Shown here one piece after another: positions 1 to 18,089 of a stretch of DNA of 26,185 nt; position 1 is the stretch's first letter; each line of letters opens with the position of its first letter. The stretch is taken from positions 1 through 26,185 of the IMG/VR virus record IMGVR_UViG_3300017913_002299; one strand, written 5' to 3'. Position numbers and translations under genes: made by a program. The notes beneath the pieces were generated by a model. That model had not been told where the DNA came from, ran no database searches, and worked only from the letters and a program-made list of their open reading frames with translations. The stretch is from a virus (Duplodnaviria; Caudoviricetes).

Positions 1-2
1 CC

Positions 3-146
3 CCTGACGGAATAGCTTTCCCATTAGACTTTAATAACAGTAGAGAATTATTTACGGGACTACTGGAGATACTAAGTTTGGCAGAAAGTAAAGAGCTGAT
101 AGAGGAACATTTTTCCGACATTCTACAGGACATTTATAGAAAATAA
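3..146 (+). CDS. 3' end of a gene truncated by the window edge; probable T5-type PC4/p15-like ssDNA-binding protein
   Basis: Frame 3 reads PDGIAFPLDFNNSRELFTGLLEILSLAESKELIEEHFSDILQDIYRK* (TAA 144-146). The P.GI.FP...L.EILS.AE pattern and the position just upstream of ligA match the PC4 homolog of T5 as recalled. Confidence 0.65.
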   Translation, partial: PDGIAFPLDFNNSRELFTGLLEILSLAESKELIEEHFSDILQDIYRK

Positions 147-182
147 TTCTTGACTTTCATTCCTTTTTTCAGTATAATATAT
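140..182 (+). promoter_or_regulatory. P1: strong sigma70-type promoter upstream of ligA
   Basis: TTGACT 150-155, 17-bp spacer, TATAAT 173-178, A-rich sequence upstream (AAAATAATTC). Confidence 0.9.
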
Positions 183-202
183 GTTCTGAGTGAGGATACT
201 AA

Positions 203-1150
203 ATGAAAGATTTTATTGAAAAAGCTGCAACTGCGTACTACTCTGGCTACCCGATAATCTCGGACGAAGAGTTTGACTCTATTGTAGCAAAGTATAACTA
301 CGATCAAGTCGGTCATCAGGTTACTGATGGCGTACCGCACCTGTATCGTATGTACTCCCTTCAAAAAGTTTTTAGTATAAATGATATTCCTACCCCCAAC
401 ATAGATTACGTTTGTACTCCTAAGTTGGACGGGGCTGCTGTGTCTTTACAATATGTAAACGGACACTTTGCGCTCGGATTGACACGAGGTGATGGTAATC
501 TTGGCCGAGACATTACCCTAAAACTAGAAGAACTGGTGCCTGCAACAATCCCTATGAAGGGAGAAGTGCAGATTACTGGCGAAGTAGTTTGCCCCTCGTC
601 TGTCCCCAATGCTCGAAACGTGGCATCTGGATCGTTAAACCTCAAAGACATACACGAGTTTAGGGCGAGAGCCAAAGACTTGGTCTTTGTTGCTTACGAC
701 ATGCAGTTTGCAGGTGACTACGCAAACTACATGGATGCAATGAAAGCGTTGGCCCATGAAGGCTTTAATGTTGTTACCGAGTTCGACTACACAGACTATC
801 CAACAGATGGTTCGGTGTATCGGATAAATAACCAAAAAGCCTTTAAAAAAATGGGATATACAGCTCATCATCCTCGCGGCGCTTTTGCTCTCAAGGAGCA
901 AAAAGAGGGTGTACATACAGAATTACTCGATGTTGTGTGGCAGGTTGGTAAGTCGGGCACAGTCAGTCCGGTTGCCATCCTTTCTCCTGTCGAAGTAGAT
1001 GGTGCTGTTGTGAGCAGAGCAACACTGCACAATATCGAGTACATTCGCAGCTTGGAACTAGAAATAGGCTGCGAGGTAGAAGTTATAAGAAGTGGTGAGA
1101 TCATTCCGCGAATCGTTCGCAGAGTAGACCTGCCAAAAAATAGTTCTTGA
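203..1150 (+). CDS. ligA: NAD-dependent DNA ligase, N-terminal subunit (Ia + adenylation + OB domains)
   Basis: YY..G.P.ISDEEFD (NAD-binding Ia domain), KLDG adenylation motif, TRGDG..G.DIT, GEV, NARN.ASG, TDG, WQVGKSG.V.PVA, RATLHN, RSGEIIP. SD GAGGA at 192-196. Confidence 0.95.
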   Translation: MKDFIEKAATAYYSGYPIISDEEFDSIVAKYNYDQVGHQVTDGVPHLYRMYSLQKVFSINDIPTPNIDYVCTPKLDGAAVSLQYVNGHFALGLTRGDGNLGRDITLKLEELVPATIPMKGEVQITGEVVCPSSVPNARNVASGSLNLKDIHEFRARAKDLVFVAYDMQFAGDYANYMDAMKALAHEGFNVVTEFDYTDYPTDGSVYRINNQKAFKKMGYTAHHPRGAFALKEQKEGVHTELLDVVWQVGKSGTVSPVAILSPVEVDGAVVSRATLHNIEYIRSLELEIGCEVEVIRSGEIIPRIVRRVDLPKNSS

Positions 1151-1179
1151 CTTTTACCTCAGTTTTTCGTATAATATAT
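1135..1179 (+). promoter_or_regulatory. P2: sigma70-type promoter at the ligA/ligB junction
   Basis: TTGACT 1147-1152 (contains the ligA TGA stop at 1148-1150), 17-bp spacer, TATAAT 1170-1175, upstream AAAAAATAGTTC. Confidence 0.9.
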
Positions 1180-1202
1180 TCTACATTTTCGGAGAAGTCT
1201 AA

Positions 1203-1979
1203 ATGCTAAGAGAGATCGTGCCACCAACGGTATGCCCGTCATGCAGTGGTGAGCTTACTTTTGTCCGCGATATTTTATACTGCCATAACAGCAGTTGTGC
1301 GGCACAAAAGGCTAAAAAGATTGAACACTTTGCAAAAACTCTGAAAATTAAGGGCTTAGGCCCAGCTACTATCGAGAAGCTAGAGATAGATGACTTTGAC
1401 CAAGTTTATCTGTATGATGAGATATTACTGTGTGAGAGGCTGGGCGAAAAGCTCGGCACAAAGTTACACGCAGAAATTCAAAACTCTGCCTCTGCCCCTC
1501 TCGAAATGGTACTACCTGCTTTTGGGATTCCTTTAATCGGAAAAACGGCAACGAAGAAGCTGTCTGAGACTATTACGTCCATTACTGAAATTACACCAGA
1601 CACTTGTGAGCGTGCCGGATTAGGCCCAGTAGCAACACAGAATCTATGCAACTGGATGGATGAAGAATTTTATTGCTTCTACGATGGGTGCCTTCCATTT
1701 GATATGAAGTTTTCATCCCGGGCTTCAACTCCCGCTCCGCAGTTAGATGATGTTGTTTGCATCAGTGGTAAGTTAAAGAGTTTTAAAACTAAAGCTGAAG
1801 CAACTGATCGTCTAGAACTTCTTGGTTACAAAGTAAAGACGAGTCTAACCAAAGATGTTACGATTCTTGTGAATGAAAGTGGTATTGAATCAGCTAAAAC
1901 TAAAAAGGCCAGAGAATCTGGCGTAAACATTGTCACGGATTTAAAATCCTATTTGGAGAAAATATATGGCACTTCCTAA
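1203..1979 (+). CDS. ligB: NAD-dependent DNA ligase, C-terminal subunit (Zn finger, HhH, BRCT)
   Basis: PTVCPSC...YCHNSSC Zn finger, IKGLGPATIEKL and FGIPLIGKTAT HhH motifs, VCISGKL...VKTSLTKDVTILV...SAKTKKARESGV BRCT. SD GGAG 1191-1194. Confidence 0.93.
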   Translation: MLREIVPPTVCPSCSGELTFVRDILYCHNSSCAAQKAKKIEHFAKTLKIKGLGPATIEKLEIDDFDQVYLYDEILLCERLGEKLGTKLHAEIQNSASAPLEMVLPAFGIPLIGKTATKKLSETITSITEITPDTCERAGLGPVATQNLCNWMDEEFYCFYDGCLPFDMKFSSRASTPAPQLDDVVCISGKLKSFKTKAEATDRLELLGYKVKTSLTKDVTILVNESGIESAKTKKARESGVNIVTDLKSYLEKIYGTS

Positions 1980-2685
1980 GTGGACAGAGGAGCGTACTGA
2001 CCAGCTCACTCTTTTTGTGGGCTCAGAAAGCCCCGTATCTCAGGCGACTGTTGCAGAAGCAGCAGAGCGTCTCGAAACTTCTGCTCGTTCCGTCTCTAGC
2101 AAACTGCGAAAGATGGGCTTCGAAGTAGAACTGGCTTCTGCCGCAGCAGGCAAGTCTTTTACCGAAGACCAAGAAGCTACATTGTCTGCCTTCGTTACTT
2201 CCAACTCTGGTGAGTACACTTATGCTCAAATCGCTGAGCACTTTGAAGGCGGCGCATTCTCTGCTAAGTCTATTCAGGGCAAGATCCTGAGCATGGAGCT
2301 GACTGACCATGTCAAGCCTGCTCCCAAGGTTGAGAGTGTTCGTACCTACACTCCCGAAGAAGAAGCTACTTTCATCTCTATGGTGAATAATGGCGACTTC
2401 GTAGAAGCTATCGCTGAAGCTCTTGGCCGTTCGGTCAACAGCATTCGTGGTAAGGCTCTGAGCCTTCTCCGCTCTGGCGATATTGCTGCTATTCCTCGTC
2501 AAGAGACTACTAAAGGCCCAGCTAATGCTGATCCTCTCGCTGAAGTTGACGTTGCTTCTATGACTGTAGAAGCTATTGCTGAAGCTATTGGTAAGACTGC
2601 TCGTGGCGTAAAGACTATGCTGACTCGTCGTGGCTTGACTGCCGCTGACTATGACGGTGCTGCTAAGGCCGCTAAGTCTCAGTAA
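1966..2685 (+). CDS. D5: T5 D5-like DNA-binding protein / transcription regulator with tandem HTH-like repeats
   Basis: Repeats starting KWTEE/SFTED/TYTPE with ..IAE..G.S..S+.GK helices, position after ligB as in T5, codon usage typical of high expression (GCT, ACT, CGT, TTC). Confidence 0.85.
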   Translation: MALPKWTEERTDQLTLFVGSESPVSQATVAEAAERLETSARSVSSKLRKMGFEVELASAAAGKSFTEDQEATLSAFVTSNSGEYTYAQIAEHFEGGAFSAKSIQGKILSMELTDHVKPAPKVESVRTYTPEEEATFISMVNNGDFVEAIAEALGRSVNSIRGKALSLLRSGDIAAIPRQETTKGPANADPLAEVDVASMTVEAIAEAIGKTARGVKTMLTRRGLTAADYDGAAKAAKSQ

Positions 2686-2702
2686 TTCTTTTTGTTGTAG
2701 GC

Positions 2703-2734
2703 GGCTGGCCTCCCTTGGGGGCTGGCCTTTTTAT
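2703..2734 (+). terminator. Intrinsic terminator after D5
   Basis: GC-rich stem GGCTGGCCTCC / GGGGGCTGGCC (with G-U pairs) at 2703-2727, followed by TTTTTAT. Confidence 0.8.
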
Positions 2735-2748
2735 GTTCGGGGGAACAG

Positions 2749-4104
2749 TTGAATATCTCTAGTGCTTTGATAAAGCAGTGTATTTCTGTGGGAGACTTTG
2801 AGACGTGGAGCTATCTACGTAAAGAGTATCTTCCTAATGAGTATCACCTGATTTATGAAGCAATTGATAATCATTGTGAAAAGTTTCACCAGTTTCCCTC
2901 TTTTGATGATCTAAAACTAAGCATTCGACACCCTGCTACTAAGGACAAGGTGTTTGCTCTAGAGTCTGTGGATGTAGACATAGAGCCCGCTACGTTGTTA
3001 GAGTATCTAAAAAATGAATATGCTCAGAAGGAGATACTTAACTCTCTTGACAAGTATATTGATAACTCTGTATTATTTGCAAGTGCCGATGAGTCAGTAC
3101 AGGAGCTACATCAGATAGTTCTTGATATTGAAGATAAAGTGGACCTTGAGGTTCCTCAAGAAAGTATGCAGCGCATACATCTAATGGAGCCTGAGGAGGA
3201 GTTATCTAAGCACATTGGCCTGGGCCTCAATACTTTGTATGATGAGGACATTACTTTCAGCCCTCGAGATTTGATTCTTGTAGGCGGAAGGCGCGGCTCA
3301 GGTAAGTCTATTACCTGTGCAAATGTTGCAAATAATGTGTTTCAGTCTGGTCGTTCAGCTATCTATTTCACTATTGAGATGGATAGTCGAGCGATACTGC
3401 AACGGTGTTGCTCGATCGCCACTGGCGTGCCCTTTTCTCGTATCCGCAATGGAAATCTTACGAACGTAGAGTGGGAGAAGATAGCCGGTTGGCAGGCTGC
3501 TAGATTTGTCAATGGACAAGAGCGGCTATTAGAATACAAAAAGAGCCAAGCACGAGACTATAACGAGTTTCATAAAAAATTAACATCAGAGCATGAGCTT
3601 CTCCCGACTCAGCAGCTTGATGTTATTTATGATCCTAGTCTAACTATTGCCAAAATACGAGCAGAGTTGGACAAAAAAGTTAGTAGAATCGGAGCAAGTG
3701 TTATTATTGTAGACTACATAAACCAGGTTAAACGTTCTCACCTCCCTTCCCGAGGTGGGCAATATGACTGGACAGAACAGATTGAAGTATCTAAAGCGTT
3801 GAAATCTATGGCTCAAGAGTATGAGTGTGCCGTTTTCTCTCCGTATCAAACTGATGCTACAGGAGAGGCGAGATTTGCTAAAGGCATCCTAGATGCGGCA
3901 GATGCGGCATACGCTCTTGAGACATGGGATCAAGAAGATCAGTGTATTTCTTTTAATTGTGTGAAGATGCGTTCTGCTAGTATGAAGTCTTTTACTTCTA
4001 CTATGGATTGGGAAACTTTAAAGATCGGGCCGGAAACTGCCTTGACTCCCAAAGAACGTGATGAAACTTCACACAAATCGGATGAAGAAATTCACGACCT
4101 CTGA
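2749..4104 (+). CDS. D6: DnaB-family replicative helicase (T5 D6-like)
   Basis: Walker A GGRRGSGKS, YFTIEM, IIVDYINQ (Walker B), SKALKSMAQE, PYQ, KMR. TTG start preceded by GGGGGA. Confidence 0.92.
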   Translation: MNISSALIKQCISVGDFETWSYLRKEYLPNEYHLIYEAIDNHCEKFHQFPSFDDLKLSIRHPATKDKVFALESVDVDIEPATLLEYLKNEYAQKEILNSLDKYIDNSVLFASADESVQELHQIVLDIEDKVDLEVPQESMQRIHLMEPEEELSKHIGLGLNTLYDEDITFSPRDLILVGGRRGSGKSITCANVANNVFQSGRSAIYFTIEMDSRAILQRCCSIATGVPFSRIRNGNLTNVEWEKIAGWQAARFVNGQERLLEYKKSQARDYNEFHKKLTSEHELLPTQQLDVIYDPSLTIAKIRAELDKKVSRIGASVIIVDYINQVKRSHLPSRGGQYDWTEQIEVSKALKSMAQEYECAVFSPYQTDATGEARFAKGILDAADAAYALETWDQEDQCISFNCVKMRSASMKSFTSTMDWETLKIGPETALTPKERDETSHKSDEEIHDL

Positions 4105-4105
4105 T

Positions 4106-4150
4106 AAAAATAATGCTTGACACTCCCGTCGATTTGGTGTATAATATATG
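4106..4150 (+). promoter_or_regulatory. P3: consensus sigma70 promoter after the helicase
   Basis: TTGACA 4117-4122, 17-bp spacer, TATAAT 4140-4145, upstream AAAAATAATGC. Confidence 0.92.
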
Positions 4151-4174
4151 CTTAATCACGGGAGTTTTTTATTT
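4122..4174 (+). terminator. Terminator-like hairpin overlapping P3
   Basis: ACTCCCGT(C)GATT 4122-4134 pairs with AATCACGGGAGT 4154-4165, followed by TTTTTATTT. Confidence 0.65.
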
Positions 4175-4471
4175 ATGGGAATGATTTATGGATCTTTACG
4201 CTACACTACCACCGGAAGAAAGAAAAAAGGTTTTGGCAGAAAAACTAAGACTGTCACGAGAGGGGATTTACATGCACCTCAGCGAAATAGTTGCCGCAGG
4301 AGTACCCCTGAGTACCCCTCGCGTCCCGATACAGTTGGAGTTGCCGCTCGGGTCGAAAGCCCGCGTTATACGGGAACCCTCGTCAGAGGTATCAGTACGA
4401 TGCATAAAAGCAATGCCGTACCTGTTATAAATGAGGAAGAAATGAAAGATATTGCGAGGATGAGAAGATAA
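4175..4471 (+). CDS. Small basic phage hypothetical protein (YTGTL..GI.TMHKSNAVPV motif)
   Basis: The ORF track starts at 4148, but that ATG lies only 2 nt after the -10 box. ATG 4175 has SD GGAG at 4161-4164. The C-terminal motif is recalled from many environmental phage proteins. TAATG coupling to the next gene. Confidence 0.75.
   Translation: MGMIYGSLRYTTTGRKKKGFGRKTKTVTRGDLHAPQRNSCRRSTPEYPSRPDTVGVAARVESPRYTGTLVRGISTMHKSNAVPVINEEEMKDIARMRR
4188..4430 (+). CDS. Possible overprinted +1-frame protein containing QLELPL
   Basis: 80-codon open frame nested in the previous gene, GGGA 7 nt upstream of the ATG, helical-looking N-terminus, QLELPL at 4332-4349. Confidence 0.3.
   Translation: MDLYATLPPEERKKVLAEKLRLSREGIYMHLSEIVAAGVPLSTPRVPIQLELPLGSKARVIREPSSEVSVRCIKAMPYLL
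4300..4319 (+). repeat. Tandem 10-bp direct repeat GAGTACCCCT x2
   Basis: Read directly at 4300-4309 and 4310-4319. Confidence 0.9.
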
Positions 4472-4698
4472 TGCACGACGCACTTATGGAACATTGGAAT
4501 ACCCCTGATACTTGTCCAAACTGTGGAGAGACATTACAGGGAGATGGGTACACAATACCTTATCACTGCCTTAATGCATATGAGGAAGATTGGTGGTACT
4601 CTGAGCCAGATAGCGGCCCTTGGCTTTGTAGTATTGATGCTGACTACGATGAGCCTACTGAGATGGACGAATGGGCATCTTTTGATCCGGACTGTTAA
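4471..4698 (+). CDS. Small acidic Cys-rich, putative Zn-binding hypothetical protein
   Basis: CPNCGE..GDGY..PYHC...EPDSGPWLC, D/E-rich tail. TAATG stop/start overlaps at both ends. Confidence 0.75.
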   Translation: MHDALMEHWNTPDTCPNCGETLQGDGYTIPYHCLNAYEEDWWYSEPDSGPWLCSIDADYDEPTEMDEWASFDPDC

Positions 4699-5531
4699 TG
4701 AACGTAGAAGACTTACTTAATACAAAAAATATACCGTTTACTCCTAAAGGCAAAGATTATGTTGTTCGGTGCTTGAACCCAGAGCATGACGACAATAATC
4801 CTAGTATGAGAATAGATCAAGTAACTGGTGTATTCAACTGCTTCTCTTGTGGATACAAGGGAACAGTTTTTGCACATTTTGGACAAAGAGCTGATCGCAT
4901 GGAAATGCGTAGGCAGATGTTAAAGAAAAAAATAAAACAAGTAAGAGAAGAGAGCGTAGGAATTGAACTCCCTATAGATGCTACTCCTTACATCGGTAAC
5001 TGGAGAAGTATTCGTCCAGAGACCTACAAAAACTTTGGTGCTTTTCTAAGCGCAGCAAAAGAGTTTACGGGCAGAGTGTGCTTTCCCATTTATGATAGAA
5101 CAGGGAAGATAGTAGCAATACAAGCCCGTACTCAAACAAATCAAATGCCAAAATATTACAACGCTCCCATGGGTGCAAAGATGCCTTTGTTTCCTGTGGT
5201 TGAGCCAATACAAAGTAGTATACTTTTGGTTGAAGGAATTTTTGATGTTCTTAATCTACATGATAAAGGACTTACAAACGCAGTCTGCTGTTTTGGGGTG
5301 CGTAATTTTAATGAGCAAAAAGCAGAAATGCTGTCTGTTCAAGGCGTCACAAATGTCGATATATTTCTAGACAATGATGAAGCTGGTCAAACAGGAGCAA
5401 AAAATATAAAAGAGATATGTGAAGGAATTGGCCTTACCACTCGCAATTGGACCATGGGCGATAAGTACATGGATGCGGGTGCTCTATCTCAACAACAAGT
5501 AGACAAGCTACGGAGTAATTTATATGCCTAA
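4698..5531 (+). CDS. pri: DnaG-like DNA primase
   Basis: Zn-binding CLNPEH.D..PS...FNCFSCG, TOPRIM VEGIFD and FLDNDEAGQ. Confidence 0.93.
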   Translation: MNVEDLLNTKNIPFTPKGKDYVVRCLNPEHDDNNPSMRIDQVTGVFNCFSCGYKGTVFAHFGQRADRMEMRRQMLKKKIKQVREESVGIELPIDATPYIGNWRSIRPETYKNFGAFLSAAKEFTGRVCFPIYDRTGKIVAIQARTQTNQMPKYYNAPMGAKMPLFPVVEPIQSSILLVEGIFDVLNLHDKGLTNAVCCFGVRNFNEQKAEMLSVQGVTNVDIFLDNDEAGQTGAKNIKEICEGIGLTTRNWTMGDKYMDAGALSQQQVDKLRSNLYA

Positions 5532-7797
5532 GGTTGCATTAGTAGAAACCAAACCAAGTAAAACGAATTTCGCTAGAGAGTTTGAAGAGGCCTTTGAGTT
5601 TGATCAATGTCAGCTCTGTTCAGACCCCGGGGTTAAAAAAGTTCTAAAGCGAGATTGCGATATTGATATGAACCCAGATGACTACGACTGGGTTGTACTT
5701 GTGGGCAGCGATGCCTTAAAATATTACACCAAGATTAATTCCGTTACAGAGTACTCAGGTAAGAAGGTAGAAGATAAGTTCTTACCTGTAATCAATCCGT
5801 CAATGCTGGCATTTAAACCAGAGGCGCGACGTACTTGGGAAGAGTCAAAAGACAACATTATTAAGTATATCTCTGGAGAGATTGAAGATGTAGTAATCAA
5901 CGAAGAGATTGCTTTCGGGATACAAGATACGGAGCAAGCAAATGAATTTATTCGGGCTGCCATCAAAGCAGAATGTGGATATGTTGCACTCGATTCTGAA
6001 ACGACTGGGCTCTACCCTCGTGATGGTTATATGTTGGGCATTAGCCTTAGTTATGATGGTAAGTGCGGTGCTTATATTGTTACCGATTGCTTTGATTATC
6101 AAACTGAAGCACTTCTTCAGCAGTTATTTGATGAGAAAAAAGTAATCTTTCATAACGCTAAGTTTGATATGGCGTTTTTTGAGTATCACTTTAATTTTAA
6201 GTTTCCTCAGTTCGAAGACACCATGCTTCTTCACTATCTCATTGATGAGAACCCTGGAGGGCACGGACTAAAAGCGCTATCTCTAAAGTATACTCCCTAT
6301 GGAGACTACGAGAAGCCAATGTACGATTGGATAGATCAGTACAGAAAAGAAACAGGAATACTAAAAGCAGACTTTCAGTGGTCTTCAATTCCTTTTGATA
6401 TTATGAAAACATATGCTGCAATGGATGCGGTCTGTACATTCTTGCTTTACGAAAAGTTTGTAAAGATTAAGCAAAATAAAAAGCTATGCAGTGTGTACGA
6501 TAATCTCTTGATCCCAGGCACTAGATTCTTGATTGATGTTCAAGACAATGGTGTTCCTTTTGATAGAGAAAGATTATATGTGGCGCAAGACTCTATGCAG
6601 ACAGATATTGATGCTGCAATTGCTACATTGTATGAGAACGATAAAATACGGAGGTTCGAGGAAATAAATGCAAAACCTTTTAATCCTAACAGCACTGTTC
6701 AGTTGCGTAGCCTTCTATTTGACCATCTTGGCCTCACGCCCACTGGAAAGAAAACTGGAACGGGCGCAGAGTCTACTGACGCGGAAGTGCTCAAGGAACT
6801 CTCGGCTCAATCGGATGTACCGCAATTCATCTTGGATATACGACAAAAATCTAAAATCAAGAATACTTATCTTGATAAGATCATACCACAGCTGGATCGA
6901 GATTCTCGCCTTCGTACAGGCTTCAATCTTCATAGTACTACTAGTGGTAGGTTGTCTAGCTCTGGCAAACTTAATATGCAGCAGCTTCCCCGAGATAATC
7001 CCACTGTTAAGGGGTGCATAAAAGCAGCCCCAGGCAATAAAATTGTTGCAATGGATTTAACTACAGCAGAAGTATATGTGGCCGCAGTATTGGCAAAAGA
7101 TGAAGCACTTATGGATGTATTTCGTAGTGGCGGAAACTTCCACAGTACGATTGCTCACAAAGTATTTCGACTGCCATGCGAAGTAGAGGAGGTAGCAGAG
7201 CTATACGCAGACCGTAGGCAGGCGGCAAAAGCTGTAACATTTGGTATCATGTATGGTGCCGGACCTGCAAAGATTAGTGAGCAGGTAACAAAAGATAGTG
7301 GAAAGTATTTTTCCCGAAATGAGGCCCAAGAAGTAATTGATGATTACTTTGACGCCTTTAGCAACCTAAAAGCATGGATTGAAGATAGACAAAAGTTTAT
7401 TTCACAAAATGGATTTGTCTATAGTTTTTTTGGTAGAAAAAGGAGATTACCGAATGTCGAAAGCTCAGACAAGGGCATCCAATCTCATAGCATTCGCTCT
7501 GGTCTTAATTTTCTGGTACAGTCTACTGCTAGTGATATTAACCTTCTCGGGGCTATAGAGATGGGAAATTTTATTAAGTCTAAAAACTTAAACTCTAGAA
7601 TTTTTGGTCTTGTGCACGATTCTATTCTTGCAGAAGTACCAGAAAAAGAAGTGACTTTCTACTGTCAAATGTTGCAGAAGTTTGTTCAAAAAGATAGGGG
7701 TGTATATATCCCTGGGGCTCCTATTGGTTGTGATTTTGAAATAGGGGAAGATTACTCAATGGGTAAATTTACGAAATTATATGGTAATACAGTATAA
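5524..7797 (+). CDS. pol: Family A DNA polymerase with 3'-5' exonuclease and an N-terminal extension (T5 Pol-like)
   Basis: Exonuclease motifs DSETTG, HNAKFD, YAAMD. TTSGRLSS..NMQQLP. Motif A AMDLTTAE, motif B RQAAKAVTFGIMYG, motif C VHDS. Confidence 0.96.
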   Translation: MPKVALVETKPSKTNFAREFEEAFEFDQCQLCSDPGVKKVLKRDCDIDMNPDDYDWVVLVGSDALKYYTKINSVTEYSGKKVEDKFLPVINPSMLAFKPEARRTWEESKDNIIKYISGEIEDVVINEEIAFGIQDTEQANEFIRAAIKAECGYVALDSETTGLYPRDGYMLGISLSYDGKCGAYIVTDCFDYQTEALLQQLFDEKKVIFHNAKFDMAFFEYHFNFKFPQFEDTMLLHYLIDENPGGHGLKALSLKYTPYGDYEKPMYDWIDQYRKETGILKADFQWSSIPFDIMKTYAAMDAVCTFLLYEKFVKIKQNKKLCSVYDNLLIPGTRFLIDVQDNGVPFDRERLYVAQDSMQTDIDAAIATLYENDKIRRFEEINAKPFNPNSTVQLRSLLFDHLGLTPTGKKTGTGAESTDAEVLKELSAQSDVPQFILDIRQKSKIKNTYLDKIIPQLDRDSRLRTGFNLHSTTSGRLSSSGKLNMQQLPRDNPTVKGCIKAAPGNKIVAMDLTTAEVYVAAVLAKDEALMDVFRSGGNFHSTIAHKVFRLPCEVEEVAELYADRRQAAKAVTFGIMYGAGPAKISEQVTKDSGKYFSRNEAQEVIDDYFDAFSNLKAWIEDRQKFISQNGFVYSFFGRKRRLPNVESSDKGIQSHSIRSGLNFLVQSTASDINLLGAIEMGNFIKSKNLNSRIFGLVHDSILAEVPEKEVTFYCQMLQKFVQKDRGVYIPGAPIGCDFEIGEDYSMGKFTKLYGNTV

Positions 7798-8275
7798 GAG
7801 TATTAATAAAATTAAGTTCCCAGTCTATGAGCTTCCTAGCTCAAACTGGGAACGATCAGATGGGTTATTATTTTTAGATAAACAAGTAGTAGATGATATG
7901 AATCAAAGAGGAGATACGTTAGGTGCAAGACGTCTACAAACTCCTCATAAAAATCTATTACCTCTAAAAGCTCAGATCGATACGTTCAGAGGCATACTAA
8001 AAAGTGACCACAAGTATTTTATAGACACAAATGGATTTTGTTTTATCTATGAAAAAACAGAATTTTGTAAATTAAAATACTTTAAAATAAAGGATATAGT
8101 ACAAAGAGAAACTTGCTCTCTTCTAAAACTAGATGGAGTAAAGAATCCTTTTGTAATTCCTAGGCCTCCAGCTATGGATATAGGCTATGCAGGTATAATC
8201 TTATGGAATAATTTACCTTGGGTTCTATATGATTATGCAGAAGAAAAATTGAAAGATACCAGAAGGAAAGTATGA
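7781..8275 (+). CDS. Conserved T5-like hypothetical protein between pol and D10
   Basis: 164-aa ORF overlapping both neighbours. FPVY...V+DD.N..G.TLG.RRLQ pattern and synteny match the T5 gene downstream of pol as recalled. Confidence 0.75.
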   Translation: MVIQYKSINKIKFPVYELPSSNWERSDGLLFLDKQVVDDMNQRGDTLGARRLQTPHKNLLPLKAQIDTFRGILKSDHKYFIDTNGFCFIYEKTEFCKLKYFKIKDIVQRETCSLLKLDGVKNPFVIPRPPAMDIGYAGIILWNNLPWVLYDYAEEKLKDTRRKV

Positions 8276-9555
8276 AAGCTGTATTAAGCAATCGTATTTT
8301 TATGGATGCATCTCCAGAGCTTAGAGAAAAGCTCTCGAAGGAGTTAACCTATAAAATCGCGCCTCAAAATCCAAATGATCCTCCTCAGATTATTAAGAAT
8401 CTGCAGCGGGTGCGCGACAATCTGGTATCCATACCAAGCGGTCGAGAGGATTTAATACCAAATGAATATGAAATTGTCGACAAGAGGATTATGGTTCCTG
8501 TTGATTTTCCTGATTTTAAGTTTGTACTCAGAGACTCTCAACAAGCCGTCTACGATGATATCTCAAGCAGTAGTATCATCAATGCGTGGGTAAGTTGGGG
8601 AAAAACGTTTACAGGTCTTGCAATCGCTGGAAAACTGGGACAAAAAACATTAGTTATTACGCATACAGTACCGCTGAGAAATCAGTGGGCAAAAGAGGTG
8701 GAAAAAGTCTATGGTATCACTCCCGGAATTATTGGTTCTGGCACTTGGAATACCGATCCTTGTATTGTGGTTGGTAATACCCAAACCTTATATAGAAACA
8801 TCGAACGAATTAGAAAAATTTTTGGAACAATTATCTTGGACGAAATGCACCACGTATCTTCGCCAACTTTTTCAAAAATCATCGACACAAGCCACGCAAG
8901 ATACAAAATCGGACTAAGTGGCACAATTGAGCGAAAAGACGGAAAACATGTAGTTTTTCGTGACTACTTTGGAAACAAGCTATACCAGCCGCCAAAAGAA
9001 AACTTTATGACGCCGAGTATTGATATTTATCGTTCCGAGGTGCGCTTTATGGACGGTGCAAATATTCCATGGGCAAATCGAGTAAACAATCTAGCAAACA
9101 ATGAAGAATATGTACATAGTGTCTCGTTGCTTGCATCATACTATGCGGCCAGAGGGCACAAAGTATTAGTAGTATCAGATAGAGTGCACTTTCTAAAAAC
9201 TTGTGCGCAGTTAGTAGGAGACAAAGCAATTTGTGTAACAGGAGAGGTTCCTCACGAAGAGAGAGAAACCCTTATTGATGAGATAAATTATGGTGATAAA
9301 GAAATACTTTTTGGCACTCAAGCAATATTTAGTGAGGGCATTTCAGTTAATTCCCTCTCTGTCCTTATACTCGGTACCCCTATCAACAATGAACCCCTTC
9401 TCACCCAGCTCATCGGAAGAGTCATTCGAGAACAAGAAGGAAAGCGAGACCCTGTAGTTGTAGATATCCATCTAAAAGGTAAAACTGCAACACGCCAAGC
9501 GTCTAATCGCATGGGGTACTACATGAAGCAAGGGTACAAAATAAATCAAATATAA
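8272..9555 (+). CDS. D10: SF2 DExH helicase (T5 D10 / UvsW-like)
   Basis: Q motif LRDSQ, Walker A AWVSWGKT, DEMHH, GLSGT, SEGIS, QLIGRVIR. Confidence 0.92.
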   Translation: MKAVLSNRIFMDASPELREKLSKELTYKIAPQNPNDPPQIIKNLQRVRDNLVSIPSGREDLIPNEYEIVDKRIMVPVDFPDFKFVLRDSQQAVYDDISSSSIINAWVSWGKTFTGLAIAGKLGQKTLVITHTVPLRNQWAKEVEKVYGITPGIIGSGTWNTDPCIVVGNTQTLYRNIERIRKIFGTIILDEMHHVSSPTFSKIIDTSHARYKIGLSGTIERKDGKHVVFRDYFGNKLYQPPKENFMTPSIDIYRSEVRFMDGANIPWANRVNNLANNEEYVHSVSLLASYYAARGHKVLVVSDRVHFLKTCAQLVGDKAICVTGEVPHEERETLIDEINYGDKEILFGTQAIFSEGISVNSLSVLILGTPINNEPLLTQLIGRVIREQEGKRDPVVVDIHLKGKTATRQASNRMGYYMKQGYKINQI

Positions 9556-9559
9556 CATA

Positions 9560-9603
9560 GAAAAATAGTTCTTGACATTAGCTGGAGTTTCGTGTATAAT
9601 AGT
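9560..9603 (+). promoter_or_regulatory. P4: consensus sigma70 promoter after D10
   Basis: TTGACA 9572-9577, 17-bp spacer, TATAAT 9595-9600, upstream GAAAAATAGTTC. Confidence 0.9.
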
Positions 9604-10011
9604 ATGTTCTTATATGATTGGAAAAAGATTTATGAAAAGGCTGGAGGCGATGCCTCCTCTATTTTCACTATCTTTAAAATGATGGTAAACAATGAGATAC
9701 CCAAGAACCGTTGGGATAAGACGTATAAATACTCTAATATACGTTTTATCGGCGAGTCGTTCTTGGCACATCCTGACGTACTCCTTTTTAATTCGTATAA
9801 GTATAGCCATGTTGAGGTAGCCCAGTACCTTGCCTTGGCTTCTTTACGTCCGCTTTCGGACTATTTAGTATCTGGGAAAACCATTCTAGACAGTAATTTA
9901 CTTGAGCTAGATAAATCACTTTTTGAAGACAATAGGCTACTTGATATCAATGATGACAGAGTTATCTTTGAATATGAAGAAGTCCCACAGGAGAAAACAC
10001 AATGGCATTAG
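9604..10011 (+). CDS. Conserved T5-like hypothetical protein between D10 and D11 (start ATG 9604 or GTG 9592)
   Basis: Open frame MFLYDWKKIY...QYLALASLR, syntenic with the T5 gene preceding D11. Start codon uncertain. Confidence 0.75.
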   Translation: MFLYDWKKIYEKAGGDASSIFTIFKMMVNNEIPKNRWDKTYKYSNIRFIGESFLAHPDVLLFNSYKYSHVEVAQYLALASLRPLSDYLVSGKTILDSNLLELDKSLFEDNRLLDINDDRVIFEYEEVPQEKTQWH

Positions 10012-10631
10012 ATTTTAACCAAGCCGCTGGCGGCGCTAAAAAATCATCAATCACTTCGTTCTCTTATCGCGACGGCGAAAACGAAGTACGACTAGTCGGT
10101 GACGTACTTGCACGTTATGTGTATTGGCTAGAAGGTAAGAATGGTAAGAACATTCCTTTTGAGTGTTTGTCATTTGATCGCAATGAAGAGCGATTCAATA
10201 ATAAAGAAAAAGATTGGGTTCGTGAGTACTACCCCGATCTGAAGTGTGGCTGGAGCTACGCTATGCAGTGCTTGGATCAAGGCGAAGTAAAGATCATCAA
10301 CTTGAAGAAGAAGCTGTTCGAAGCTATTCTTCAAGCCGCACAAGACGGTCTAGGAGACCCTACAGATCCAGAGAATGGCTGGGATGTTAAGTTCAAGCGA
10401 GTAAAGACGGGTCCTCTTCCGTACAATGTAGAGTATCAACTTCAAGTCTTGAAGTGCAAGCAGCGCGCACTGACCGAAGACGAAATGGCTGCTATTGCAG
10501 ACCTAAAGTCTATGGACGATGTTATGCCTCGTCCAACCCCCGACGCACAGAAAACTCTTCTCGATGAGATTCGTGAAGAAAATTCTGGAGATATGGATGA
10601 AGCACTAGAAGCTGAGTTTAAAATGTCATGA
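10002..10631 (+). CDS. D11: Single-stranded DNA-binding protein (T5 D11-like)
   Basis: GEN.VRLVG, DPTDP..GWD..F.R.KTGP..NVEY, acidic C-terminal tail, SD AGGAG, T5 synteny. Confidence 0.85.
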   Translation: MALDFNQAAGGAKKSSITSFSYRDGENEVRLVGDVLARYVYWLEGKNGKNIPFECLSFDRNEERFNNKEKDWVREYYPDLKCGWSYAMQCLDQGEVKIINLKKKLFEAILQAAQDGLGDPTDPENGWDVKFKRVKTGPLPYNVEYQLQVLKCKQRALTEDEMAAIADLKSMDDVMPRPTPDAQKTLLDEIREENSGDMDEALEAEFKMS

Positions 10632-17587: not shown

Positions 17588-17857
17588 ATGCAAATCATCA
17601 ATCCAGATAATCCCACCGTCGTATTAGACGGAGAAGAACATGAAATTGAAAAGCTGAATGAGAACTGTAAGTATTATATTGATCAATACACAGATTTAAA
17701 TGCTCAGCTTACACAACTTCGTGCAAAAATGCACCAAATTGAGGTTGCACGTGCAGGTTTTATTAGTCTTTTAAAGGGAGAGATTGCTGCACAAAATAAT
17801 GTGTTCAAAGACGAGGCTACCATAGATGAAGCAGCAGAGGAAGAAGTCGAAGGGTAG
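17588..17857 (+). CDS. Small beta-hairpin + coiled-coil protein (DUF6447-like)
   Basis: TVVLDGEEHEIEKLNE followed by a heptad helix. SD AGGAG. DUF assignment is from memory. Confidence 0.7.
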   Translation: MQIINPDNPTVVLDGEEHEIEKLNENCKYYIDQYTDLNAQLTQLRAKMHQIEVARAGFISLLKGEIAAQNNVFKDEATIDEAAEEEVEG

Positions 17858-18089
17858 TATAGAGGATGCGATTGAGCTTCGCCCAGAAAGTGAGTGGGAA
17901 GACGAAAATCGTAGGCCAGTAGAAGATGTCAGTGCTACTGATCTATCTGATACAGCTATTCATTATTTGGCACAAATACAAGACCTGCAAGATCAGCTAG
18001 AGCAAGAGTATTTAAAAGTACAACGGCTGGAAATGGCTATAAAAGGGTTTAGTATGGCACTACAGGAAGAAATAGAAAAGGGGCAATAA
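17826..18089 (+). CDS. Small coiled-coil protein, probable paralog of the preceding gene
   Basis: DLSDTAIHYLAQIQDLQDQL...RLEMAIKGFSMALQEEI aligns with KLNENCKYYIDQYTDLNAQL...QIEVARAGFISLLKGEI. Confidence 0.7.
   Translation: MKQQRKKSKGSIEDAIELRPESEWEDENRRPVEDVSATDLSDTAIHYLAQIQDLQDQLEQEYLKVQRLEMAIKGFSMALQEEIEKGQ

Follow-up and report, generated by a model that had tools for sequence, protein, structure and literature searches.

Promoters nested in hairpins over the ribosome-binding site in the replication module of a T5-like phage and their possible role in insulation from read-through RNA

Can a promoter carry, in its own spacer, an RNA signal that acts only on transcripts arriving from upstream? 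This question is raised by a stretch of 26,185 nucleotides (positions 1 to 26,185 of the IMG/VR virus record IMGVR_UViG_3300017913_002299, Caudoviricetes; hereafter the window), which we assign by gene content and gene order to the replication module of an uncultured T5-like phage. An earlier note on this DNA had claimed that at three promoters, P1 ahead of ligA, P2 ahead of ligB and P3 ahead of orf5, the spacer pairs with the downstream Shine-Dalgarno sequence (SD), and had read this as a start-site-dependent translation switch. Our analysis keeps the hairpin at P3 and, in a weaker form, at P1, discards it at P2, and favors insulation of the downstream genes from read-through RNA over a switch in timing.

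A consensus scan for TTGACW-17-TATAAT, scored out of 12, found four sites in the window at 11-12/12, at positions 150, 1147, 4117 and 9572 (P1 to P4), which gives P1, P2 and P3 the sigma70-type boxes claimed for them. Promoter activity and start sites were taken from the consensus alone, with starts placed about 7 nt after the -10 box. The pairing segments quoted by the earlier note were found at the positions it gave, and for every region the quoted pairing is also the fold of lowest energy. To survey the relatives, of which the closest to the window are IMG/VR contigs, the best upstream promoter at 11-12/12 was taken for each gene in each related locus and identical promoters were collapsed; loci having no such promoter were dropped (D3 93/205, denV-like 21/137, ligB 16/177, orf5 11/95, ligA 7/201). 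The promoters of D3 and of the denV-like gene, seen in relatives, are situated ahead of the part covered by the window. D3 is named from phrog_1725 and T5 D3 matches, and "denV-like" is a working label from a sub-cutoff Pyr_excise match.

The P3 element stands between the helicase gene and orf5 and comprises, with its neighbors:

4117..4145, plus strand: P3 promoter, -35 TTGACA at 4117-4122 and -10 TATAAT at 4140-4145 (consensus scan, 12/12)
4122..4165, plus strand: P3 predicted hairpin of 19 bp, 4122-4129 with 4158-4165, 4131-4134 with 4154-4157 and 4136-4142 with 4146-4152
4165..4174, plus strand: P3 U-tract (T6-A-T3) between stem base and AUG, terminator-like by sequence and conservation
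2749..4104, plus strand: D6 DnaB-like helicase gene (phrog_19), which supplies the RNA running into P3
4175..4471, plus strand: orf5, encoding a basic 98-aa protein (phrog_27048) and opening a gene run to primase (4698) and polymerase (5524)

By the tests below, the P3 hairpin is real, and it looks like one element in which terminator, promoter and SD are nested. The 3' arm holds an SD-like GGGAG (4160-4164) that pairs with CTCCC (4123-4127). The fold, at -21 to -21.9 kcal/mol, gives z -4.7 against shuffled spacers and z -3.9 (p 0.004) against dinucleotide-shuffled ones, and none of 306 real spacers from other promoter classes folds as well as P3's own. Removal of the pre-start arm brings the fold energy from -21.9 to -0.9 kcal/mol, in line with the claim that the fold depends on this arm. 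On the long RNA that comes from upstream, the computed probability that the SD is unpaired is 0.00, and opening the site costs 14.3 kcal/mol compared to 4.1 kcal/mol on the short RNA started locally.

The same stem was followed through the relatives, where it reaches z <= -2 in 38 of the 41 unique orf5 promoter variants. In an alignment of these 38 hairpin-bearing variants, 12 cells of the outer helix are altered on both sides compared to 3.1 after shuffling (0/500 shuffles reach this value), and RNAalifold recovers 5 pairs of this helix. A tree of 37 leaves, built from the helicase DNA upstream, implies 17 changes in the outer 7 pairs; 16 of them preserve pairing, 5 by change on both sides. 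Among the core C-G pairs no reversal to G-C is seen, which makes their G side look constrained as an SD.

The U-tract, which the earlier note does not mention, follows the stem closely in its distribution. Five T columns are invariant in the 38 aligned variants, at least 5 T within 8 nt after the stem were counted in 38 of 40 scored variants, and the tract is present in all 38 hairpin-bearing variants and absent in the three hairpin-less orf5 promoters (3/3). By the same measure it is found at 0/55 D3, 0/58 denV-like and 4/94 ligA stems. As the AUG lies 6-11 nt beyond the stem base, termination in the U-tract would end the RNA at or before the start codon, and P3 likely terminates incoming helicase RNA besides hiding the SD. 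RNA contigs from four metatranscriptome runs, mostly relatives' RNA and unable as contigs to show ends, stop at 4120-4121 in X1, X2 and X4 and at 4113 in X3, with no contig cover of 4128-4184 in any of the four; these stops are a weak hint of termination at P3.

At P1, the features are as follows:

150..178, plus strand: P1 promoter, -35 TTGACT at 150-155, 17-nt spacer, -10 TATAAT at 173-178 (consensus scan)
154..209, plus strand: P1 predicted hairpin, 154-160 with 203-209 (AUG), 161-165 with 192-196 (SD GAGG at 192-195) and 168-172 with 186-190
203..1150, plus strand: ligA, NAD-dependent DNA ligase subunit A (phrog_3359, E 1.5e-107)

A promoter at 11-12/12 occupies this place in 194 of the 201 ligA-bearing loci examined. 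CCTT (162-165) pairs as anti-SD with GAGG (192-195), and the fold of -14.3 kcal/mol, which falls to -0.6 kcal/mol without the pre-start arm, gives z -2.8 (p 0.012) against shuffled spacers and z -1.95 (p 0.043) against dinucleotide-shuffled ones. Only 4/253 foreign promoter-class spacers fold as well, and shuffling of the whole region gives z -1.9, with 8/200 equally good. On the long RNA, the SD has a computed unpaired probability of 0.03 and an opening cost of 7.4 kcal/mol, compared to 2.9 kcal/mol on the short RNA. Among ligA variants, 17/94 have z <= -2, and own arms pair better than arms swapped among relatives (-8.9 vs -7.4, permutation p 0.0002). In the 46 closest of the 94 variants, 71% of cells are paired and 29 cells change on both sides compared to 20.6 in shuffles (5/500). 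In the near-identical contig L001, the scan calls no strong terminator directly ahead of P1, which makes it plausible that RNA from the D3 promoter reads through. The P1 hairpin is probably real, though modest and patchy in relatives; that its pairing arose by chance is the less likely account, yet one that keeps some weight.

The two remaining promoters of the window are without the design:

1147..1175, plus strand: P2 promoter, TTGACT-17-TATAAT, whose claimed hairpin (1141-1208) is no better than chance
1203..1979, plus strand: ligB, ligase subunit B (phrog_3498)
9572..9600, plus strand: P4 promoter (consensus scan), no hairpin, internal negative control

The P2 fold of -8.7 kcal/mol gives z +0.5 (p 0.66) against shuffled spacers and p 0.75 in the dinucleotide shuffle. 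It is equaled by 226/287 foreign spacers (in the region taken without the TAGT extension) and by 72/200 whole-region shuffles. No ligB variant reaches z <= -2 (0/60), own arms are no better than swapped ones (p 0.99), and in 27 close sequences no change on both sides was found, with 500/500 shuffles doing as well. P2 was therefore rejected as a member of the hairpin design, and chance pairing fully explains it. The stems thus beat dinucleotide-shuffled spacers and show compensatory change among relatives at P3, do so to a limited extent at P1 and fail at P2. The P2 5' arm overlaps the last ligA codons and the stop, the TGA at 1148-1150 lying within the -35 box, and upstream stop codons are often found inside the -35 box (TTGA) in relatives (31/59 ligB, 24/61 denV-like and 14/55 D3 variants). 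ligB may be left coupled to ligA, its partner subunit, a coupling that would make sense. At P4, 0/22 variants reach z <= -2, with p 0.998 in the dinucleotide shuffle and p 1.0 in the arm swap. The likely ATG of the next open reading frame (ORF; 9604, within 9572-9606) stands 3 nt past the P4 -10 box, and 0-3 nt past it in most relatives, so P4 RNA would probably lack that start codon, the mirror image of the hairpin design.

We then asked how far the design extends in relatives. Unique variants with z <= -2 against shuffled spacers make up 22/57 at D3 and 26/73 at denV-like promoters. Own arms outpair swapped arms at orf5 (-17.3 vs -13.1), D3 and denV-like (permutation p 0.0002 each). The median extra cost of opening the site on long compared to short RNA is 11.2 kcal/mol at orf5, 4.5 at denV-like, 3.4 at D3 and 3.2 at ligA, and 1.2 and 0.8 kcal/mol at the controls ligB and P4. 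The stem base coincides with the SD in each of the orf5, D3, denV-like and ligA classes. Leaderless denV-like variants, which have no SD, carry the hairpin in 1/14 cases compared to 26/59 of the others (Fisher p 0.012, from rounded z and related sequences). Within five complete relatives, strong promoters with z <= -2 number 4/19 in G001 (three with the hairpin-over-SD design), 3/14 in G002 (all three with the design), 8/23 in G003 (two with the design), 0/6 in G004 and 1/8 in G005. In G003, promoters C1 3232, 5922, 6313, 9981 and 18959 share a near-identical palindrome over the -35 box, lying wholly upstream of the -10 box, which looks like a repeated operator. The G001 D3 protein (L056:5161-5616) has some 20-30 N-terminal residues uncovered by T5 D3 matches, followed by a second Met, and may carry an extension or a fused small ORF.

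The strand on which pairing is kept was examined by scoring G-T and A-C alike at non-SD positions. At P3 we found 28 G-U and 1 A-C, and at the ligB control 22 G-U and 78 A-C. The proposal that G-U pairs reflect selection on RNA is supported at P3. Perfect Watson-Crick arms have a median of only 6-8 bp. Arm sequences differ among promoters and flip among relatives, which is unlike a sequence-specific operator.

Coliphage T5 itself carries the design at some promoters. Among 33 annotated promoters tested in 10-85 kb, with boxes assigned automatically, seven reach z <= -2, and in five of these (holin, T5.053, T5.058, T5.090 and P31B) the spacer pairs with an SD-like site further downstream; since the GAGGAG paired at P31B may not be the SD in use, the design is counted at 4-5 of 33. 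Two others with z <= -2, rnh and P31A, were set aside because their folds are of another kind. At the holin promoter of NC_005859 (L306:10999-11072, minus strand), the spacer pairs with the SD at z -3.1, which parallels the T4 lysozyme gene e. Close T5 relatives retain the fold in 7/9 holin and 18/18 T5.090 variants, which are too alike for much covariation. We found no description of this design at T5-like promoters in the open-access literature.

Related logic is known from other systems. RBS-sequestering (ribosome-binding site) hairpins with a nested late promoter occur at T4 e, soc, 49, I-TevI/II/III and segB and at Aeh1 mobE (PMC3014915, PMC2988022). There, the nested promoter sits within the region of the 5' arm, the SD or AUG is paired in long RNA, and local RNA is without the arm. 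Here the placement of the promoter and, by computed folding, the pairing in long RNA are alike, and local RNA would lack the arm if starts lie about 7 nt after the -10 box. In T4, the promoters inside the hairpins belong to the gp55 late class and those upstream of them are early or middle promoters, hence a timing switch. In the present case, nested and upstream promoters belong to the same TTGACW-17-TATAAT class, replication genes are included, and P3 has a U-tract. At sigma54 promoters, Levy et al. (bioRxiv 10.1101/086108) describe untranscribed promoter sequence that pairs with the SD in read-through RNA only. The proposed insulating role and a pyrimidine-rich anti-SD upstream of the start and near the SD, as at P3 and P1, are shared with it; the sigma54 motifs described there are short scattered CT stretches (3-5 nt) in chromosomes, whereas here one continuous, covarying hairpin of 15-20 bp lies at phage sigma70-type promoters. 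All sites here have sigma70-type boxes; no separate sigma54 scan was made. Tn10/IS10 is reportedly protected from outside transcription, a finding attributed to Davis et al. in 1985. In IS200, a separate terminator and a 5'UTR hairpin shield the transposase gene (PMC4513863). Insertion sequences resemble the design in using RNA structure or a terminator to shield a gene with a host polymerase promoter from impinging transcripts, and differ in that they keep single transposase genes low, while here the design recurs at several strong lytic-phage promoters. P3 further resembles a class I intrinsic terminator, as a G+C-rich stem downstream of a stop codon is directly followed by a U-tract, and departs from it in having, instead of a short 3-8 nt loop, an extended 44-nt hairpin interrupted by internal mismatches; the next promoter occupies its 5' arm and loop, and the next SD its 3' arm. 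A search of window 1-10100 with Rfam 15 gave 0 family matches at E <= 1.

The design works like T4 e/soc/I-TevI and sigma54 insulation, but at host sigma70-type promoters, and fails T4's defining late-promoter feature. The precedent invoked by the earlier note is shared, with sigma54 anti-SD insulation and Tn10 as further ones. Its "switch", understood as a change in timing, is not sustained: since all promoters, upstream and local, follow one consensus, no timing logic is evident and an insulator is better supported.

We propose, with a probability of roughly 0.6, that these elements insulate their genes from read-through at the level of RNA, by occluding the SD and, at P3, also by terminating the incoming transcript. 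The sequence, computed folds, covariation, strand bias and distribution are observed; from them we infer that the promoters are active, where they would start RNA, how it would fold in the cell, that translation would fall or RNA end, and to what purpose, as follows. In a subset of host-type promoters, the spacer is complementary to the leader and ribosome site that directly follow. RNA from upstream would likely form a hairpin that covers the SD, while RNA from the local promoter, lacking the 5' arm, would stay open. At P3, the hairpin with its U-tract would also stop helicase RNA just before the orf5 AUG, and RNA started inside P3 would escape both blocks, so that P3 would be the main source of RNA for orf5, primase and polymerase. 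Read-through RNA would thus be silenced at P3 and P1 by the computed SD occlusion, much as had been suggested, with possible termination added at P3. The purpose is likely to uncouple chosen genes from upstream transcription within series of near-identical strong promoters arranged head to tail. A broader form of this proposal is possible rather than probable: that T5-like phages including T5 generally rely on promoter-in-hairpin insulators at host promoters of one class, with holin, D3, denV-like and ligA translated only from their own promoters, and P3 acting as a single 55-nt terminator, promoter and ribosome site and the sole feed of the primase-polymerase genes.

Several observations weigh against insulation. 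The variants share ancestry, so counts are not independent and p values overstate independence. Outside P3, the excess of G-U over A-C is weak (denV-like 20:10, D3 8:5, ligA 12:10, in sets pre-selected by RNA folding), and DNA-parameter folds are about equal on both strands (P3 class -9.7 vs -9.3). P1 is patchy, being non-significant in relative G001 (z -0.2); only 3/17 of its pairs change on both sides, RNAalifold finds no P1 consensus structure in the 46 closest of 94 variants, and the preceding stop codon in most cases ends 3 nt ahead of the -35 box of P1, so that a terminating ribosome could melt part of the arm. The window's P2 is also 2.9 kcal/mol costlier to open on long RNA. In T5, the D3 and ligA promoters are without the hairpin and ligB likewise, which suggests that the design is gained and lost gene by gene.

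Two other RNA-level accounts were considered. The stems could be sites at which RNase III processes long early RNAs by cutting them between genes, and such cuts might open the ribosome site downstream instead of blocking it. T7 early mRNA is processed by RNase III, the stems reach 17-20 bp with small internal loops and are intergenic, and the contig stops seen in 3/4 runs at the base of the 5' arm of P3 (4120-4121) fit cleavage or termination alike, though as a weak hint. Processing leaves unexplained why the stem base sits on the SD in four gene classes and T5, why SD-less variants are mostly without the hairpin and why the P3 U-tract is invariant, and many ligA and denV-like stems are short or broken; we consider it unlikely. 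A shade less likely still, the stems could act solely on the transcript from upstream, by terminating it, pausing it or protecting its 3' end, the SD pairing being a by-product of a 50-nt gap whose sole G-rich stretch is the SD. The G+C stem and invariant U-tract of P3 agree with this, as does the T5 annotation, where terminators overlap the upstream part of several promoters. Against it stand the near absence of U-tracts at the D3, denV-like and ligA stems given above, the fixed C-G orientation at the SD, and the fact that the terminator rule of the scan (loop 3-8) does not call P3. For P3, this account overlaps with insulation rather than excluding it.

A role of the inverted repeats in DNA, as a cruciform centered on the AT-rich -10 box or a dyad operator controlling promoter firing, would explain why the axis is always the -10 box and why DNA-parameter folding is similar on both strands, but not the 28 G-U to 1 A-C at P3, the short perfect arms, or arm sequences that vary by promoter and flip among relatives; it is highly improbable. 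Equally improbable as a general explanation is chance pairing of pyrimidine-rich spacers with purine-rich ribosome sites. It accounts for P2 and is compatible with the stricter shuffle (p 0.04) and missing consensus fold at P1, but is at odds with z values down to -9 at P3, D3 and denV-like, the arm-swap results and the compensation seen at tree level, and covariation refutes it for P3.

The surroundings of these promoters agree with the assignment of the window, whose genes include ligA, ligB, a D5-like regulator, a DnaB-like helicase, primase, polymerase and further replication genes. The split ligase ligA/ligB, D5, D6, primase, polymerase and D10-D15 follow the same order as in T5 records. 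The best cultured matches of ligA are about 47% identical, and RNA of related phages is present in seawater and aquatic metatranscriptomes. Between ligB and the helicase gene lie:

1966..2685, plus strand: D5-like transcription regulator (phrog_323)
2703..2737, plus strand: canonical terminator-like hairpin and T run, 3' of D5 (sequence scan)

As no 11/12 promoter is found ahead of D6, its RNA likely reads through the hairpin at 2703..2737. For orf5, no Pfam match was found and Atlas scores were all <=0.77, which gives leads only. At 17588-18089 of the window, two neighboring small ORFs match phrog_21153, which suggests a tandem duplication. In relatives, G001:C1:93189-93632 and G002:C1:9700-10100 each hold a cluster of divergent strong promoters with no evident ORF, which may be a terminal repeat or a region of non-coding RNA, and G001 ORFs L056:336-857 and 1560-1940, judged by their sequence, resemble a small heat-shock protein and a scaffold of the IscU type.

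The early promoters of T5 are textbook examples of strong promoters, and their spacers are as a rule regarded as neutral. If our proposal is true, some spacers carry an RNA signal that decides the translation or termination of incoming transcripts. P3 would offer a compact natural terminator-promoter-RBS insulator for gene-circuit design and, as T5 itself has the design, the proposal is directly testable in laboratory E. coli. For these phages, it would explain how dose-sensitive genes such as holin are controlled separately among dozens of head-to-tail promoters of the same class.

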